This document shows positions 2,511 to 28,721 of a DNA stretch of 64,000 nucleotides, in pieces. The stretch comes from an uncultured Muribaculaceae bacterium (GTDB lineage: Bacteria > Bacillota_I > Bacilli_A > RF39 > UBA660). Position 1 is the first letter of the stretch. Each line of letters opens with the position of its first letter. The position numbers and the translations under genes were made by a program. The notes beneath the pieces were generated by a model. The model was not told the DNA's origin. It made no database searches and was given only the letters and a program-made list of their open reading frames with translations. Location: positions 5 through 64,004 of the forward strand of contig CAYJEO010000002.1 in assembly GCA_964369355.1 (NCBI GenBank), in the 5' to 3' direction.

Positions 2511-3584
2511 ATGAAAAAAGTAATCGCTATAACTTTAGAAAATATAATAAGTAGTAAAAATGATTTTTGTGTAAATAATATTCCTAAGTATTTATTTAAT
2601 AAGTATAATATGAAAGTGACATTAGAAGATATTAATAAAGAAAGATATTCAGAAAAATTTAATTTAAACAGACATTTAATTATTAAAAGTATTTCAGATT
2701 TACAAGCACAAAAAATTTATAAAGAAGTTAATATAGATTTTATTAAAAATAACTATGCAAAATATTTGTTTTTTAAAATAGATACAAAAGTAATTGATTT
2801 TTTTAATAAAATAGACGGTGATATTGTTTTTATATTACCTGAGACTAATAAATCTAATATAGAGCAAGTTATAATTGAAAATTTATTTAAATCTTATTTA
2901 AAATTAAATAAAGTTAATTTTTCTAAAGTGATTTCTGCTTCTTCGATAAAAGAAAAATTAGAGTATTTAGAAAATATAAATCCAGATTTATTATTAACTT
3001 CGAATAAAGATTTAGTTTCTTCTTATAAAGGTAATAGTATGAAGTTAAATTATGAAATGATCAATAATGATTTAAATATATATCCTATATTAAATGAGAT
3101 AAAAGATATAAAAACTCATTTATATATAGATAAACTAAATGTATATAATTTAAAGTTTATTTCTATAAAACATAAGTTACTTAAAAATGATTTATATGAA
3201 ACTATTAATTATGAAAAAATAAATAAAAATATTTCTAAAATAAAAAGACCTATTATATATGTAAGTAATACATTATCTAATTTAGATAAATCTACATTAA
3301 TTGTTAATTCTAAACAACCTGTATATTTTTTTAAAGAAGAGTATTTAAAAAATACTACTGAAGGTCAAGTAAAATATGATATTAAAACTTTATTAGAAAA
3401 TCGTTTTAGTGTTGTTACTTTAGAAAATGAATATGTATTTGATTTAGCAGCTAAATTAAATATTCCTATTGTTCCAATAGAAACAAATAATAATACAATT
3501 CTATATGATTCTGTTAATAAATTAGATAAAATAGAGTTAAAAGAAGAGTATGAGAAAGTTAAAAATAAAAATAAGAGCATTTAA
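2511..3584 (+). CDS. Hypothetical protein; the C-terminal half resembles a lysophospholipid acyltransferase (PlsC/LPLAT) fold with degenerate catalytic motifs
   Basis: YVSNTLSNLD sits where LPLATs have NHxSxxD, with His replaced by Thr. LNIPIVPIE matches the LPLAT P(I/V)(I/V)P(I/V) block. N-terminal KVIAITLENI sits where HAD enzymes have DxDxT. Strong SD ggaggg. Family calls are tentative. Confidence 0.6.
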   Translation: MKKVIAITLENIISSKNDFCVNNIPKYLFNKYNMKVTLEDINKERYSEKFNLNRHLIIKSISDLQAQKIYKEVNIDFIKNNYAKYLFFKIDTKVIDFFNKIDGDIVFILPETNKSNIEQVIIENLFKSYLKLNKVNFSKVISASSIKEKLEYLENINPDLLLTSNKDLVSSYKGNSMKLNYEMINNDLNIYPILNEIKDIKTHLYIDKLNVYNLKFISIKHKLLKNDLYETINYEKINKNISKIKRPIIYVSNTLSNLDKSTLIVNSKQPVYFFKEEYLKNTTEGQVKYDIKTLLENRFSVVTLENEYVFDLAAKLNIPIVPIETNNNTILYDSVNKLDKIELKEEYEKVKNKNKSI

Positions 3585-23178: not shown

Positions 23179-25128
23179 ATGAATTTTGAAATAAACGAAA
23201 AAAACATATTAAAATTTACATTACCATGTATAATGACAATGATATTTACATCAATATTTGTCATGTCAGATGGAATAATAGTGTCAAATTATATCAATGA
23301 AACAGCACTAGCCGCTATTAATATAGTAATGCCTGTAACGTCTTTGTTCTTAGCAGTAGGATTAATGTTTGGAGCAGGAAGTAGTGCTATATGTAGCCAA
23401 TTATTAGGAGAAGGTAAAATAGATAAAGCCAAACAAACTTTATCGTCAGTATTAGTAGTATCTTTTATAATAGGTGTTATTTTTACTATATTAACACAAT
23501 TAAACATGGATAGTATTCTAAATTTCTTAGGAGCTAGTGAAGATACAATAGGGTATGCAAGTAGTTATTTAAGAGTACTATCAATATTTTTATCAATAAT
23601 AATGATTAAAACAATATTCCAAAGTATTATGGTTGTATCAGGAAAAGCATTTTTATTTTTTAAAGCAATGATAGTATCAGGAATACTTAAAGTAATATTA
23701 AGTTATTTATTTGTAGCAGTATTAAATTTAGGAACAACAGGTTTAGCTTTTGCTGGTGTTTTTGGATATTTAATACCAGTAATAGTATCAATAATAGCAT
23801 TATCAAAAAATAATGAACAAGGTTTATCATTAGTTAAACCAAAATTTGATAAAAAAATAATACTTGACTCTTGTTATAATGGTTCAAGTGAAATGGTAAC
23901 AAATATGTCATCTGCAGTAACAACATTTTTATTTAATTCAGCAATGTTAAAACTAGTAGGAGACTCAGGAGTTTCAGCAGTTACTGTAATTTTATATATT
24001 CAATTTTTATTAGGATCTATATTTATGGGATATGCTATAGGAATAGCTCCTTTAATAGGATTTAATTATGGTAAAAAAGATAGTAATAATTTACATAAAA
24101 TATTTAAATCAAGTTTAAAAATATTAAGCATTATGTCAATAGTTAGCTTTAGTATAGCGTTTATATTTTCTAGCAACTTAACCTCTTTCTTTGCAGAAAA
24201 AGGAAGCGAAATATATGAATTATCACATAATGGATTAAATATATTTGCCTTTGGATTTTTATTTATGGGATTTAATATATTTGCATCAGGATTATTTACA
24301 GCATACTCAAATGGTAAAGTATCTGCATTTATATCAGCGATAAGAACATTAGGTTTAATATCTACATCAATTATATTATTACCTAATATATTCGGGATAA
24401 ATGGTGTATGGATGGCTGTACCAGTAGCAGAGTTCATAACTTTATTTATATCGTTATACTTATTTAATAAATATAAAGATATTTATATGTATTCAGGTAA
24501 AAAAGTATTAGAAGAAAAAACATATGAAACTTCTACTTTAATTACCATTAATAGAATGTTTGGTTCAGGGGGAAGAGAAGTAGGAAAGCGTTTAGCAGAA
24601 CAATTAAACTTTGCTTACTATGATAAAGATATTATAAATGATATTTTAAATAACGATGGTTTAAGTGATGAATATTTAGAACAATATAACGATATTAATT
24701 TTAGTTCGAATTTCAAATTCCAGTTTGCTACATCATTTGTAAAATATAAAGATAGTCCTTCAGCAGATGTATTTGAAAAACAAGCTGAAGTAATAAAAAA
24801 ACTATCAAATAAAGATAGTGTCTTTGTAGGAAGATGTTCAAATCATATTTTAAAAGAAAAAAATCCTTTTAAAGTATTTATATATGCTAAGGATGAAGAT
24901 TATATAATTAATAGATTATATGAAAAAAACGAAGCAGATAAAAATAAAACGGAAAAACAATTAAAAAAATTAGTAAAAAAAATAAATGATAATAGACAAA
25001 ATTATTATAAATATTATACAGGTAGTGATGTACTAGACTTAGAAAACTATGATTTAGTTATAGATATATCTAAAGTAGGATTAAAAAATGCTGTTAATAT
25101 TATAAAATTAGCAATAGAAAAGAAGTAA
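23179..25128 (+). CDS. MATE-family efflux transporter fused in frame to a cytidylate-kinase-like (Cytidylate_kin2) domain
   Basis: Residues 1-435 are a 12-TM MATE-like protein. Residues from about 455 (nt 24541 onward) read LITINRMFGSGGREVGKRLAEQLNFAYYDKDII, a P-loop-like family signature. The frame is open with no stop between the two parts. Confidence 0.75.
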   Translation: MNFEINEKNILKFTLPCIMTMIFTSIFVMSDGIIVSNYINETALAAINIVMPVTSLFLAVGLMFGAGSSAICSQLLGEGKIDKAKQTLSSVLVVSFIIGVIFTILTQLNMDSILNFLGASEDTIGYASSYLRVLSIFLSIIMIKTIFQSIMVVSGKAFLFFKAMIVSGILKVILSYLFVAVLNLGTTGLAFAGVFGYLIPVIVSIIALSKNNEQGLSLVKPKFDKKIILDSCYNGSSEMVTNMSSAVTTFLFNSAMLKLVGDSGVSAVTVILYIQFLLGSIFMGYAIGIAPLIGFNYGKKDSNNLHKIFKSSLKILSIMSIVSFSIAFIFSSNLTSFFAEKGSEIYELSHNGLNIFAFGFLFMGFNIFASGLFTAYSNGKVSAFISAIRTLGLISTSIILLPNIFGINGVWMAVPVAEFITLFISLYLFNKYKDIYMYSGKKVLEEKTYETSTLITINRMFGSGGREVGKRLAEQLNFAYYDKDIINDILNNDGLSDEYLEQYNDINFSSNFKFQFATSFVKYKDSPSADVFEKQAEVIKKLSNKDSVFVGRCSNHILKEKNPFKVFIYAKDEDYIINRLYEKNEADKNKTEKQLKKLVKKINDNRQNYYKYYTGSDVLDLENYDLVIDISKVGLKNAVNIIKLAIEKK

Positions 25129-25144
25129 ATAATTACTTCTTTTT
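25121..25144. terminator. Bidirectional terminator between the MATE fusion gene and lexA
   Basis: agaagtaa/ttacttct forms an 8-bp stem with an ataa loop, followed by a T-tract. Confidence 0.6.
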
Positions 25145-25760
25145 ATATTTTTCTATATAAACCAATAGCTTTACCTAATATTTGAACATTAGGCAAAATA
25201 ATAGGTTCCATTGTATCATTTTCAGGCTGTAATCTAAAATAACCATTTTCTTTATAAAAAGTTTTTAATGTAACTTCAAATTCATCAGTCATTGCAACAA
25301 CAATCTCACCATTTTTAGCAGTATTAGTTCTTTCTACTATAACTATATCCCCATCTAAGATACCTGCATTAATCATTGATAGTCCACTTACATTTAAAGT
25401 GAAAACTTCTTTATTATTAGGAACTAAATAACTAGGTAATGAAAAATATTCATCTGGTTTTTCAATTGCTTCAATAGGCGACCCTGCTGTAATTTTACCT
25501 AATAAAGGAACTTCAATAACATCTTGGTTGGCAGTTACAAATTCGTTTTTAACTAAAACTTCAATAGCTCTGTTTTTAGAATCTTCTTTTTTAATAAATC
25601 CTTTAGCTTCTAAATTATTTAAGTGAGCATGAATAGTAGCAGGAGAAGAAACTCCTAAAGCTTTTCCAATTTCTCTAATAGTAGGTGGATATCCGTTTGA
25701 TACTATATATCCTTTAATGTATGTTAATATATCTGATTGTCTTTTTGTTAAGTCTTCCAT
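25143..25760 (-). CDS. lexA: LexA repressor
   Basis: Winged-helix N-terminus (PPTIREIGKALGVSSPATIHAHLNNLEAKGFI), Ala-Gly cleavage site (ITAGSP) and the S24 Ser/Lys pair (GLSMINAGI ... LGKAIGLYR). Confidence 0.92.
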   Translation of the reverse strand: MEDLTKRQSDILTYIKGYIVSNGYPPTIREIGKALGVSSPATIHAHLNNLEAKGFIKKEDSKNRAIEVLVKNEFVTANQDVIEVPLLGKITAGSPIEAIEKPDEYFSLPSYLVPNNKEVFTLNVSGLSMINAGILDGDIVIVERTNTAKNGEIVVAMTDEFEVTLKTFYKENGYFRLQPENDTMEPIILPNVQILGKAIGLYRKI

Positions 25761-25784
25761 AAAGCACCCCTTTACATTAAAATA

Positions 25785-25813
25785 ATTTTATCATGAAAGT
25801 GTAAAGATGTCAA
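25785..25813 (-). promoter_or_regulatory. lexA promoter
   Basis: On the minus strand: TTGACA (25813-25808), a 17-nt spacer, then TAAAAT (25790-25785). Confidence 0.6.
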
Positions 25814-25824
25814 ACAAATGTTTG
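25811..25824. promoter_or_regulatory. Degenerate SOS (Cheo-type) box overlapping the lexA -35
   Basis: Palindrome CAAAC-AAAT-GTTTG. The consensus is CGAAC-N4-GTTCG, so one symmetric position is changed. Confidence 0.5.
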
Positions 25825-25833
25825 CAAAAGATA

Positions 25834-25862
25834 TTGACACGAACGATTGTTCGTGGTAAACT
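25834..25862 (+). promoter_or_regulatory. Divergent promoter for the small membrane-protein gene
   Basis: TTGACA (25834-25839), a 17-nt spacer, then TGg-TAAACT (25854-25862). Confidence 0.6.
25840..25853. promoter_or_regulatory. Consensus SOS (Cheo) box / LexA operator
   Basis: Perfect CGAAC-GATT-GTTCG lying inside the spacer of the plus-strand promoter. Confidence 0.8.
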
Positions 25863-25888
25863 TGTTTTACAGTTAAGGAGGAGTAAGT

Positions 25889-26029
25889 ATGTTAGATATG
25901 ATGAAAAACAAAATGATTGGAGGTTTTATGATTTTTATAGTTTGTATACTATTACTTAACTCTTATAGTATACAATTAGAACAAGAAAATAAAATTCAAG
26001 ATTTAGCAATTTATCAAACAAATAACTAA
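25889..26029 (+). CDS. 46-aa single-pass membrane protein divergent from lexA; candidate SOS-induced cell-division inhibitor (functional analog of YneA/SosA)
   Basis: Not in the ORF track. SD aaggagga lies 7 nt before the ATG. Translation: MLDMMKNKMIGGFMIFIVCILLLNSYSIQLEQENKIQDLAIYQTNN, with one TM helix. Its promoter carries the perfect Cheo box. Confidence 0.6.
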   Translation: MLDMMKNKMIGGFMIFIVCILLLNSYSIQLEQENKIQDLAIYQTNN

Positions 26030-26078
26030 TCAAATAATCTAAAGTATGATATAATTATTATACTAGGGAGTGGTATTA

Positions 26079-27962
26079 GTGGATAAGAGAGTTGTTAATA
26101 ATTTAAAAACTTTAGGAATAGATATGATTTCAAAAGCAAACAGTGGTCATCCTGGCATTGTTTTAGGAGCAGCACCAATAATATATGCTTTATATAAAGA
26201 TCATATTCAAGTTAAACCAAATGATCCTACATGGGTTAATAGAGATAGATTTGTAATGTCAGCAGGACATGGTTCTGCTTTATTATATGCCAATTTATTT
26301 ATGGCAGGATTTGGAATAACAATAGAAGATTTACAAAAATTTAGAAGCCTACATTCGAAAACACCAGGACATCCAGAAGTTCATCAAACACCAGGTGTTG
26401 ATATGTCAACAGGTCCATTAGGTCAAGGTTTTTCTTCAGCGGTAGGTATGGCTATGGCTGAAAAAAGATTAAATGCATTGGATAGTGAAAAGTATAATTA
26501 TAATGTATATGCACTATGTGGTGATGGGGATTTAATGGAAGGTGTTGCTTTAGAATCAGCTGCAATAGCAGGAAAATTACAACTAGATAATTTAATTGTT
26601 TTATATGATTCTAACGACATTACATTAGATGCAGACTTTGAAACATCTTCAAGTGGTTATGTATTAGAAAAATTTTATGCAATGGGTTGGGATGTATTGT
26701 ATGTTAAAAATGGTAGTAACATTAAAGCAATATCAAAAGCAATTAAAAGAGCAAAGAAAAATTTAAGACCTACATTAATCGAAATAAAAACAAAAATTGG
26801 ACATGGATCACTTTTAGAAGGTAGTTCTAAAGTACATGGTAAAGTATTAACAGAAGAAGATGTAATACAGTTAAAAGAAAAATTAAAAATAAACAATACA
26901 CCGTTTTTTATAGATGAAGAAGCTAAAAAATACTTTATTGACAATATTTATAAAAACAGTTTTGAAAAATATAAGAATTGGAAAGAATTACATAATAATT
27001 TTGAAAAAACTGAACGAATTAATTTAATGAAATATGATTATGGATTTAAAGCATTTGAAGCAACAAGAGACTCAAATTATAAAGTAATGCAGCAACTTGA
27101 TTCATTAGTTCCTAATCTTTTTGGAGGTTCAGCAGACTTATCAAGTTCTACTAAAGCATATATTGAAAACGGTAATATCTTTTCAAAAGAAAACTATGCA
27201 GGAAAAAATATATTTTTTGGAGTAAGAGAACATGCAATGGGTGCTATTATGAATGGACTTTCATTATCTGGATTTATTTCATATGGTTCTACATTTTTAG
27301 TATTTTCAGATTATTTAAAACCTGCTATTAGATTAGCGGCCTTAATGAATTTAAACGTAGTTAATATATTTACACATGATTCTATAATGGTAGGTGAAGA
27401 TGGACCTACACATCAACCAATTGAACAATTAGGTTCATTAAGAGAAATACCTAATCACTTTGTATTTAGACCTGCAGATGGTAAAGAGTTAGTTGGATGT
27501 TGGGATTACATTATAAATAATAAAATATCTGCTTCATTAGCATTATCAAGAACAGAAACACCTTTATTAATTGAAACATTAGAAGATGCAGTTTATAAAG
27601 GCGGATATATAGTACATAAAGAAGAAGGTAAGTTAGATGCTATAATAGTAGCAACGGGAACTGAAGTATCATTAGCTTTAAAAGTAGCTAAAGCAATAAA
27701 TAAAAACATAAGAGTTGTTAGTATGCCTTGTGTAGAACTATTTAATAAGCAATTAAAAAAATATCAAAATGAAATATTACCTAAGACTAAAAAAACTATA
27801 GTAATAGAAGCATCATCTAGTCATATATGGTATAAATATGCCAAAGAAGAAAACATAATTAATGTATCAAATTTTGGAGTAAGTGCTACAAAAGAAGATG
27901 TATTAGCATATTTTAAATTAGATGATAAAGCAGTTTTAGAAAAAGTAAAGAAACTAATATAA
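26079..27962 (+). CDS. tkt: Transketolase
   Basis: SGHPG, GDGDLMEG and the TPP/pyrimidine-binding pattern throughout. GTG 26079 (8 nt after agggag) is preferred over GTG 26070. Confidence 0.92.
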   Translation: MDKRVVNNLKTLGIDMISKANSGHPGIVLGAAPIIYALYKDHIQVKPNDPTWVNRDRFVMSAGHGSALLYANLFMAGFGITIEDLQKFRSLHSKTPGHPEVHQTPGVDMSTGPLGQGFSSAVGMAMAEKRLNALDSEKYNYNVYALCGDGDLMEGVALESAAIAGKLQLDNLIVLYDSNDITLDADFETSSSGYVLEKFYAMGWDVLYVKNGSNIKAISKAIKRAKKNLRPTLIEIKTKIGHGSLLEGSSKVHGKVLTEEDVIQLKEKLKINNTPFFIDEEAKKYFIDNIYKNSFEKYKNWKELHNNFEKTERINLMKYDYGFKAFEATRDSNYKVMQQLDSLVPNLFGGSADLSSSTKAYIENGNIFSKENYAGKNIFFGVREHAMGAIMNGLSLSGFISYGSTFLVFSDYLKPAIRLAALMNLNVVNIFTHDSIMVGEDGPTHQPIEQLGSLREIPNHFVFRPADGKELVGCWDYIINNKISASLALSRTETPLLIETLEDAVYKGGYIVHKEEGKLDAIIVATGTEVSLALKVAKAINKNIRVVSMPCVELFNKQLKKYQNEILPKTKKTIVIEASSSHIWYKYAKEENIINVSNFGVSATKEDVLAYFKLDDKAVLEKVKKLI

Positions 27963-27975: not shown

Positions 27976-28023
27976 GACAAATTATAACAATTTAATAATT
28001 TATTATATAAATAGGTGATTTTA

Positions 28024-28446
28024 ATGCGAAAATATAATTTGTTTTTAATTAAAGATGAATATGTAAAATCTTATTCTAATAATAGAATAATACTTTTTAA
28101 AACTTTGAAAAATTTATATGAAATAAAGACCAATGTTAATTATAGTTTATCTATATATAATCAAATATGTAATGTATTTGATAAAAAATTATTGCTATAT
28201 TACTTTCATAATAAAAAAGCCTTTATAAATGATAACAACTTATTTTATTTAAATACTCAAAAAGAAGAAAGTGTTATTAAAATTAATTATTCAGCACTTA
28301 CATTAGCGACTAATAATAATTTTTCAGATATATTTAAAATACTTAAAATATATAATCAAAATATATTTGTATGTGATTTTTTAAATAATGACTACTTTTG
28401 GATAAAAGAATATAATCATATTAGTAATATAAATAAATATAATTAA
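28024..28446 (+). CDS. SirA-like (DUF2522) protein, tentative
   Basis: The N-terminus [18 protein letters not shown] resembles the SirA-family YxxYLIKEEFxxxYFG start. The position between tkt and yneF matches sirA (yneE) in B. subtilis. Confidence 0.45.
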
Positions 28447-28502
28447 GTATAGTCTTGTATTTTCAATCATTTTTTAGTAAAATTATTGTGGAGATGATAA
28501 TA

Positions 28503-28721
28503 ATGGAATTTTTAGTAGATGTACTACAAATAGTAGGTGGATTTATAGCAGGAGCAGTATTAGGATTTTTCTTAGCTCGTAACTATATGAAAAAATATAT
28601 GAAAAAAAACCCACCAATCAATGAACAAATGATTAGAGCAATGATGTCAGGCATGGGTAGAACTCCAAGCCAAAAACAAGTTAATCAAATGATGAAGACA
28701 ATGACTAAAAACTTTGAATAG
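28503..28721 (+). CDS. yneF: UPF0154 family small membrane protein
   Basis: One TM helix, then [43 protein letters not shown], which is close to B. subtilis YneF. ATG 28503 follows ggag. Confidence 0.85.

Follow-up and report, generated by a model that had tools for sequence, protein, structure and literature searches.

Small membrane peptides encoded divergently from lexA are the usual brake on division after DNA damage in Gram-positive bacteria, and the locus described here raises the question of whether such a brake is encoded in an uncultured member of the Bacilli by a gene too small to have been called. The window, a stretch of 64,000 nucleotides (nt) from contig CAYJEO010000002.1 (assembly GCA_964369355.1, GTDB lineage RF39, UBA660), contains lexA on the minus strand and, between lexA and the transketolase gene tkt, a plus-strand open reading frame (ORF) of 46 codons. 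A product of 46 amino acids (aa) is under the usual size limits of gene calling. A first-pass annotation made from the sequence had proposed that this ORF encodes an SOS-controlled inhibitor of cell division. The analysis reported here indicates that the ORF is very probably a LexA-controlled membrane-peptide gene. With more reserve, we lean towards reading its product as a division inhibitor that is induced in the SOS response and represents a new sequence family.

The source assembly comprises 950,171 bp with 25% G+C. The lexA product carries the expected domains (Pfam Peptidase_S24 PF00717, E 1.7e-34; LexA_DNA_bind PF01726, E 1.4e-23), and the lexA promoter is the top-scoring match of the region in a promoter scan (11/12), with a layout that is kept in about 30 relatives. 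The opposite promoter reaches 10/12 matches and has TG at 25854-25855 ahead of TAAACT at 25857-25862. Both promoters, TTGACA-17-TAAAAT and TTGACA-17-TGgTAAACT, are found where the first-pass annotation had placed them, as are the palindrome over the lexA -35, the perfect Cheo box in the opposite spacer and the 46-codon ORF with its strong Shine-Dalgarno sequence (Table 1). The same annotation had called the promoters face-to-face, which is wrong: they stand back to back, and their divergent -35 hexamers are 20 bp apart. The centres of the two operators are separated by 29 bp and the start codons of lexA and the small gene by 129 bp. The Shine-Dalgarno sequence lies 7 nt before the ATG when counted from its GGAGG core (25877-25881) and 5 nt when counted from the end of the AAGGAGGAG span; one of comparable kind precedes the ORF in every relative. 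The ORF contains no arginine codon and no TGA, so that its translation is the same under whichever genetic code.

Homologues were first searched for with the peptide (tblastn) in 60 relatives, where the matches were weak and those in small frames sit between lexA and tkt. A profile of five sequences was then run against six-frame translations of 201 genomes of the same family (cut-off E <= 1e-4) and found small open frames in 40 of them. All of the best 29 loci are divergent from lexA at a distance of about 125-135 nt, one of them (G160) with a 290-aa gene inserted between the two. Among ten more genomes that were inspected, eight copies adjoin lexA and two lie elsewhere. Altogether, the gene is divergent from lexA in 37 of the 39 inspected loci, the exceptions being two unlinked copies (G089, G221). 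The family proteins are 43-55 aa long and share the consensus MKEMLKSK-x-MIGF-x-IF-x-LGITY-x-NS...KKMEE...I-x-MN-x-K. A search of 1.84 billion proteins with a 29-member profile returned 294 cluster representatives, the best 150 of which are 39-85 aa in length. Every named member is entered as 'hypothetical protein [Bacilli bacterium]', and Pfam domains are absent from them. Similarly, no Pfam (E <= 1), NCBIfam or PHROG family matches the small peptide family, which by these searches has neither a name nor an annotation in the databases and libraries covered.

Several features indicate that the frame is translated. Conservation is highest at second codon positions (0.65), followed by first (0.50) and third positions (0.45), and the ratio of nonsynonymous to synonymous substitution rates (dN/dS) is 0.34-0.66 in the closest family pairs. 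Only these pairs are usable, because synonymous sites are saturated across the family; family-wide dN/dS is uninformative, with several pairs above 1. Relative to the same-genus relative, the proportions of differing nonsynonymous and synonymous sites are 0.37 and 0.60, respectively, and the peptide is 41% identical, compared with 87% for LexA and 63% for Tkt. Reading frame, length, Shine-Dalgarno sequence and residue pattern are kept across 43 aligned genera-level relatives despite the divergence of the DNA. By these comparative measures, the small ORF is a real, conserved protein-coding gene.

The promoter of the small gene is conserved along with it. The arrangement TTGACA-CGAAC-N4-GTTCG-TGnTAnnAT is found ahead of the gene across genera, and the lexA-side motif GTCAAAC-N4-GTTYG is kept at the same place in relatives. 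The block ATTGACACGAACGATTGTTCGTG is identical to the same-genus relative at 23/23 positions, versus 62% for the whole lexA-to-ORF intergenic alignment. In G160, where the inserted gene splits the pair, the small gene retains its own promoter with two boxes. Of the copies unlinked from lexA, that in G089 retains TTGACA-CGAACAATTGTTCG-TAGTATGAT and that in G221 retains TTGACATAAACAAATGTTCGTGGTAGAAT. LexA-type control, as predicted from these motifs, belongs to the small gene itself, and the putative operator follows the gene when the linkage to lexA is lost. The SOS regulation first proposed for the gene is supported by the perfect LexA-type box in the promoter spacer, by its conservation in relatives and by its retention in the unlinked copies. 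Judged from the sequence, LexA probably binds at this site and DNA damage probably induces the small gene.

The distribution of boxes in the genome points in the same direction. By chance, the window should contain 0.03 copies of a perfect CGAAC-N4-GTTCG, and its sole copy in the 950,171-bp genome is the one in the small-gene promoter. The relaxed form CRAAC-N4-GTTYG is seen twice in the window (0.04 expected) and six times genome-wide, in each case at a short distance before the start of a gene, namely lexA, the small ORF, ruvA(-ruvB), recX, recG and a gene with a KilA-N domain (Pfam). For recA, CGAACAAATTTTCG, a box with one mismatch, is located shortly upstream of the -35; no LexA-type box was seen for uvrA. 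Since all six boxes lie ahead of gene starts, they are taken to mark a coherent, small SOS regulon in which the small ORF holds the best operator. The predicted SOS regulon of this genome is tiny. The box on contig C36 overlaps the 3' end of the upstream listed ORF. The recG box may serve instead the divergent neighbour of recG, which encodes a 262-aa protein of unassigned family.

The encoded peptide has a short basic N-terminus, one predicted transmembrane (TM) helix at about residues 9-25 and a tail of about 22 residues that is polar and acidic. With the family alignment as input, AlphaFold2 models one helix over residues 2-44 with a mean predicted local distance difference test score (pLDDT) of 85, falling to 60 in the tail; a single helix offers no functional clue. 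The family mean net charge is +1.7 for the N-terminal nine residues and -1.4 for the tail, which by the positive-inside rule places the N-terminus inside and the C-terminus outside. The product is therefore predicted to be a single-pass membrane peptide of N-in/C-out orientation. The best-conserved part is the cytoplasmic N-terminal octapeptide MKEMLKSK, in which K8 is invariant and K2, E3 and K6 are conserved at about 80%. The conserved residues G12, F13, F16, G19 and Y22 lie on roughly one face of the helix in a G-x6-G pattern, and such a one-sided face fits specific helix-helix packing. The copy in this genus has C19 and L22 in place of G19 and Y22.

To place the gene in a wider context, genome contigs were scanned with the LexA protein. 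The 80 loci returned are labelled uncultured Tenericutes, Mycoplasmatota or Bacilli, Candidatus (Ca.) Coprosoma, Ca. Pelethosoma and Ca. Faecisoma; Ca. Pelethosoma is placed by NCBI in Mycoplasmatota incertae sedis, and the group is presumably the GTDB order RF39. About 57 of 73 lexA loci of the group carry, divergent from lexA, an ORF of 33-73 aa with a Shine-Dalgarno sequence and a single TM helix. Its start typically lies 110-140 nt from lexA (range about 90-200). The profile of the window's own family, termed family A, matches 25 of the 80 loci. Family B shows the pattern ...IY...DRIERLE... and family C the pattern KKYSG-LFFYLVI...NARF. Families B and C are related (hhalign, 95%), family A aligns weakly but collinearly with B (33% probability, E 4.6e-4), and the comparison of A with C (12%) gave nothing useful, so that a single superfamily is possible at best. 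The promoter element TTGACA-CGAAC is common to all three families. In Lachnospiraceae (L134, L137-L139), the genes divergent from lexA combine a TM helix with LysM and match the NCBIfam YneA model (1.8e-16 and 2.7e-13), which makes them a positive control for that model. This pattern across lineages matches a published rule, according to which the SOS division inhibitors of Gram-positive bacteria are small, span the membrane once, adjoin lexA and have no clear sequence homology to one another (PMC6851548).

Further occupants of the slot were seen in other lineages. Unrelated small TM ORFs of 57-58 aa form family f14 (L167, L169), and in family f15 (L173, L176, L179) a TM ORF of 57 aa is followed by a DUF896/YnzC-like gene and then by tkt. 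In one sub-group of relatives (L045, L078-L082), an extra ORF of 60-62 aa (MEYYTI.DIQ.LTGY...), which has no Pfam match, comes first in the LexA-controlled operon, before the membrane peptide. In one relative (L075), the gene divergent from lexA begins MMKVRCKWCNLQNPLYVNYHDKEWG and looks more like a Tag-type 3-methyladenine glycosylase than like a membrane peptide.

Downstream of the small gene, the order is lexA, small gene, tkt, a sirA-like gene and a yneF-like gene. In B. subtilis, the order is lexA, yneA-yneB-ynzC, tkt, sirA, yneF, which the present locus matches if the small gene takes the place of the yneA group. The linkage to tkt is looser than that to lexA, tkt being the next gene downstream in 21 of 30 loci. 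A TGnTATAAT-like element precedes tkt in three of the first four relatives compared, namely the three that have tkt downstream. On the other side, the ORF adjoining lexA (649 aa, window 23179-25128) has a multi-TM, transporter-like part and a C-terminal soluble part according to the ORF list; an earlier reader had labelled it a MATE/cytidylate-kinase fusion. Several proposals of the first-pass annotation are borne out by these comparisons. The gene occupies the yneA/sosA slot, divergent from lexA and with tkt and then the sirA-like and yneF-like genes downstream, and relatives searched for small TM ORFs opposite lexA do carry them in the proportion given above. A single TM helix with a short polar tail agrees with the hydrophobic core, the modelled helix and the charge asymmetry, and the proposed new sequence family is consistent with the lack of matches in Pfam, PHROG and NCBIfam, the YneA model included.

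Table 1 Features of the lexA locus and related sites. Positions are those of the window unless a genome, contig or locus is named
Feature	Position	Strand	Description	Basis
lexA	25143..25760	minus	205 aa, S24 self-cleaving repressor	ORF list, Pfam
lexA promoter	-35 25813..25808; -10 25790..25785	minus	TTGACA, 17-nt spacer, TAAAAT	promoter scan
Putative LexA operator 1	25811-25824		CAAACAAATGTTTG; overlaps 3 bases at the upstream edge of the lexA -35	
Small-gene promoter	-35 25834-25839; extended -10 25854-25862	plus	TTGACA, 17-nt spacer, TGgTAAACT	promoter scan
Putative LexA operator 2	25840-25853		CGAACGATTGTTCG; perfect Cheo box, starts directly after the -35 and fills the promoter spacer	
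Shine-Dalgarno sequence	25875-25883	plus	AAGGAGGAG	
Small gene	25889..26029	plus	46 codons, product MLDMMKNKMIGGFMIFIVCILLLNSYSIQLEQENKIQDLAIYQTNN	ORF list; homologues in the same slot of relatives
Extended -10 of separate tkt promoter	26047..26055	plus	TGATATAAT	sequence
tkt	26070..27962	plus	transketolase, likely start GTG 26079	Pfam Transketolase_N, E 9.9e-106
sirA-like gene	28015-28446	plus		Pfam PF10747 SirA, E 1.6e-07
yneF/UPF0154 gene	28455-28721	plus		Pfam PF03672 UPF0154, E 5.3e-29
Box sites outside the window (G000)	C9:17597; C14:6189; C31:2486; C36:3898; C3:~48541			
Prophage paralogues (G087:C12, two copies)	L146:2475-2624 and 3394-3540			
Prophage paralogue (G220:C1)	L147:3027-3164			

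How the peptide could act is suggested by the remaining gene content and by better-known systems. The genome encodes peptidoglycan synthesis and a divisome, including three SEDS proteins, three class-B penicillin-binding proteins (PBPs), FtsZ and one S41 (CtpA-type) protease (G000:C26:10038-10523). On contig 12, one class-B PBP gene and a SEDS gene lie on the same strand, about 2.5 kb apart. The best SEDS (FtsW/RodA) match (G000:C12:17505-18563) contains one TGA, which may reflect a misassembly, a disrupted gene or read-through. In the undamaged cell, LexA would occupy both operators and repress both promoters, as SOS biology leads one to expect, and the operator at the lexA -35 would provide lexA autoregulation. 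After DNA damage, self-cleavage of LexA stimulated by RecA would free the small-gene promoter, and the short leader together with the strong ribosome-binding site would give a burst of the 46-residue peptide. It would enter the membrane with the basic N-terminus inside and the tail of about 22 residues outside. By analogy, its TM helix may then dock on the septal SEDS/class-B PBP synthase (FtsW-PBP2B type), septal wall synthesis would be paused and division held until repair is complete. The peptide would then be removed, perhaps by the S41 (CtpA-like) protease, a type that reportedly resets YneA and SosA. We infer the divisome target and the division block by analogy with YneA, SidA and probably SosA, which act in this way. 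The TM helix of YneA binds TM7 of FtsW, and AlphaFold 3 models suggest FtsW as the target of several SOS inhibitors (PMC13396833).

A very small hydrophobic peptide under LexA control could also be a membrane toxin of the TisB/DinQ type, which would oligomerise, dissipate the proton-motive force and induce dormancy while leaving the divisome untouched. TisB itself is a LexA-controlled membrane toxin of 29 aa (PMC8145889, PMC11449926), and the conserved G-x6-G face could equally serve self-association. However, the promoter scan found no promoter-like site on the minus strand, whether opposite the ORF or beyond it, and no Rfam family matches positions 25600-26300, although a trans-encoded RNA could lie elsewhere. 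A known RNA element at the locus was rejected on the same Rfam result. The strong Shine-Dalgarno sequence and short leader also differ from tisB, the primary transcript of which needs processing before it can be translated. Moreover, the family retains the tail and the conserved head, whereas TisB has little beyond its hydrophobic helix, and the position divergent from lexA is a hallmark of Gram-positive division inhibitors (PMC6851548). A toxin of this type is decidedly unlikely. Even less weight, to the point of being hardly credible, is given to the view that the ORF is an untranslated chance frame or leader and that the LexA promoter serves only damage-inducible transcription of tkt. It can draw on the linkage to tkt and on the lack of an intrinsic terminator between the small gene and tkt (window 26030-26079), which makes read-through from the SOS promoter into tkt possible after damage. 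Yet frame, length (43-55 aa), Shine-Dalgarno sequence and residue pattern are conserved while the DNA has diverged, the gene persists without tkt downstream and in prophages, tkt has its own conserved extended -10, and public protein sets contain the 294 cluster representatives. A leader peptide or upstream ORF of tkt was likewise rejected, as the gene retains lexA or the LexA box where tkt is absent.

A third explanation comes from the prophage copies just mentioned, which rest on two prophage regions (G087, G220). The paralogues lie in early lytic operons, with an XRE repressor on one flank (in G220 together with an ImmA-type metalloprotease) and replication-initiation, Erf, Gam/RecE-like and exonuclease genes on the other. 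The early operon of a phage is the site of host-takeover genes and is switched on after DNA damage, a placement that counts in favour of a division inhibitor. No relative was found in an IMG/VR scan with the pattern MKEMLKS alone, and no PHROG family contains the peptide. The product of the chromosomal gene could be a small SOS-induced membrane protein that modulates something else (a transporter, a sensor kinase or an envelope enzyme), or the gene could have been domesticated from a phage, in which it might have served superinfection exclusion, for example. The occurrence in prophages, the conserved cytoplasmic octapeptide, which hints at a contact not known for YneA or SosA, and the lack of a family assignment in Pfam, NCBIfam and PHROG would all be in line with such a role. 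The prophage copies, however, are found in the early lytic operon and not on the lysogeny side, where exclusion genes are usually located. In dozens of genera, moreover, the chromosomal gene has kept either its place beside lexA or a LexA box, and lexA is its sole conserved partner gene, tkt being absent downstream in about a quarter of the loci. We regard a role outside division as unlikely, if somewhat less so than a toxin.

Several observations weigh against a division inhibitor and account for the reserve with which that reading is held. None of the 29 family members matches the YneA model NF010723 even at E <= 10, and no LysM domain is found in the peptide (Pfam, E <= 1), the tail of which has only about 22 residues. 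Because these model and LysM tests failed, the peptide is not a member of the YneA family. In YneA, the TM helix alone localises without inhibiting and the LysM domain is required (PMC13396833). With LysM essential there and absent here, one TM helix plus 22 tail residues may not be enough to block division. The conserved octapeptide head is not mentioned in the YneA and SosA literature consulted here. The outer tail is weakly conserved, this genus being without the terminal I-x-M-N-x-K, and purifying selection on the peptide sequence is only moderate. In addition, the promoter could partly serve damage-induced transcription of tkt, and the prophage copies would fit other functions too, superinfection exclusion among them. 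A more specific form of the proposal is doubtful, although it is given somewhat more credence than either a toxin or a role outside division. It holds that the peptide, as a minimal inhibitor lacking LysM, acts on the septal SEDS/class-B PBP synthase by docking through the G-x6-G face and using the cytoplasmic head, that temperate phages of the same bacteria have captured it for host takeover, and that families A, B and C descend from one ancestral checkpoint peptide.

If the peptide is a division inhibitor, its family would provide the DNA-damage checkpoint in a large set of gut Bacilli that are uncultured and have small genomes. Peptides of this kind are too short and too variable for annotation, so that whole lineages appear to be without a checkpoint. 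At 43-55 residues and without LysM, the family members would be among the smallest Gram-positive candidates, and binding to FtsW-PBP2B, if true, would make them a compact model, provided by nature, on which to design inhibitors of SEDS polymerases. As a rule for annotation, a LexA box with a single-TM ORF of about 33-75 aa beside lexA recovers the gene in about four fifths of the related genomes. The prophage paralogues suggest that division brakes are traded between hosts and phages.

Among the known systems, YneA of B. subtilis and Listeria (NF010723) is also LexA-repressed, and its gene is transcribed away from lexA and has tkt, sirA and yneF further downstream. YneA is similarly small, with one N-terminal TM helix and its C-terminus outside, as is predicted here. 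In contrast, YneA is about twice as long and has an essential extracellular LysM domain, and in its locus yneB and ynzC follow yneA, whereas neither follows the small gene. With 46 aa against the 87 positions of the YneA model and no LysM match, the peptide is shorter than YneA and without LysM, as the first-pass annotation had stated. The YneA model was also run over 81 genomes of the family, where the frames that it matches have 49-839 aa and, with few exceptions, greatly exceed YneA in length; the matches mostly cover model positions of about 25-87. These positions are taken here to be the LysM part. Several tandem matches share one frame, and no bona fide YneA is among the matches listed.

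SosA of Staphylococcus (77 aa; PMC6851548) is likewise divergent from lexA and LexA-controlled. Its single TM helix is close to the N-terminus, and its C-terminal part is extracellular and contains no LysM. Both evolve fast, with 25-60% identity among staphylococci for SosA (PMC6851548) and 41% within one genus for the peptide. The outer part of SosA, however, has about 47 residues, is thus twice as long, includes a conserved motif next to the membrane and is functionally essential, and the MKEMLKSK head of family A is no described feature of SosA; the two are compared by description. SosA is said to be reset by the S41 protease CtpA, and a gene for an S41 protease is present here too.

Further parallels are found outside the SOS-induced membrane inhibitors of division in Gram-positive bacteria, a class that includes YneA, SosA, ChiZ and DivS. 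SidA of Caulobacter crescentus is an SOS-induced single-TM peptide of 29 aa that blocks a late step of division via FtsW (PMC6851548, PMC13396833). It illustrates that a bare TM peptide of such size can suffice, albeit in another phylum, in a Gram-negative alphaproteobacterium and with an unrelated sequence. The sidA gene is not known to be linked to lexA. The type I toxins TisB and DinQ of E. coli are also LexA-controlled, membrane-inserted peptides of <50 aa. They differ in having an antisense RNA partner, no counterpart of which was found here by the promoter and Rfam scans, and a translation-inhibited primary transcript; their action is to depolarise the membrane. For the paralogues in prophages, a precedent is gp56 of phage SPO1, which we take to be a small membrane protein. 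This phage-encoded inhibitor blocks division of B. subtilis at a late step via FtsL/DivIC (bioRxiv 10.1101/2020.02.06.938217); it is part of the module with which this lytic phage takes over its host, and is likened here by description only. Overall, the peptide shares the layout of YneA, SosA and SidA and is of a known kind, in a sequence family that has no name as yet.

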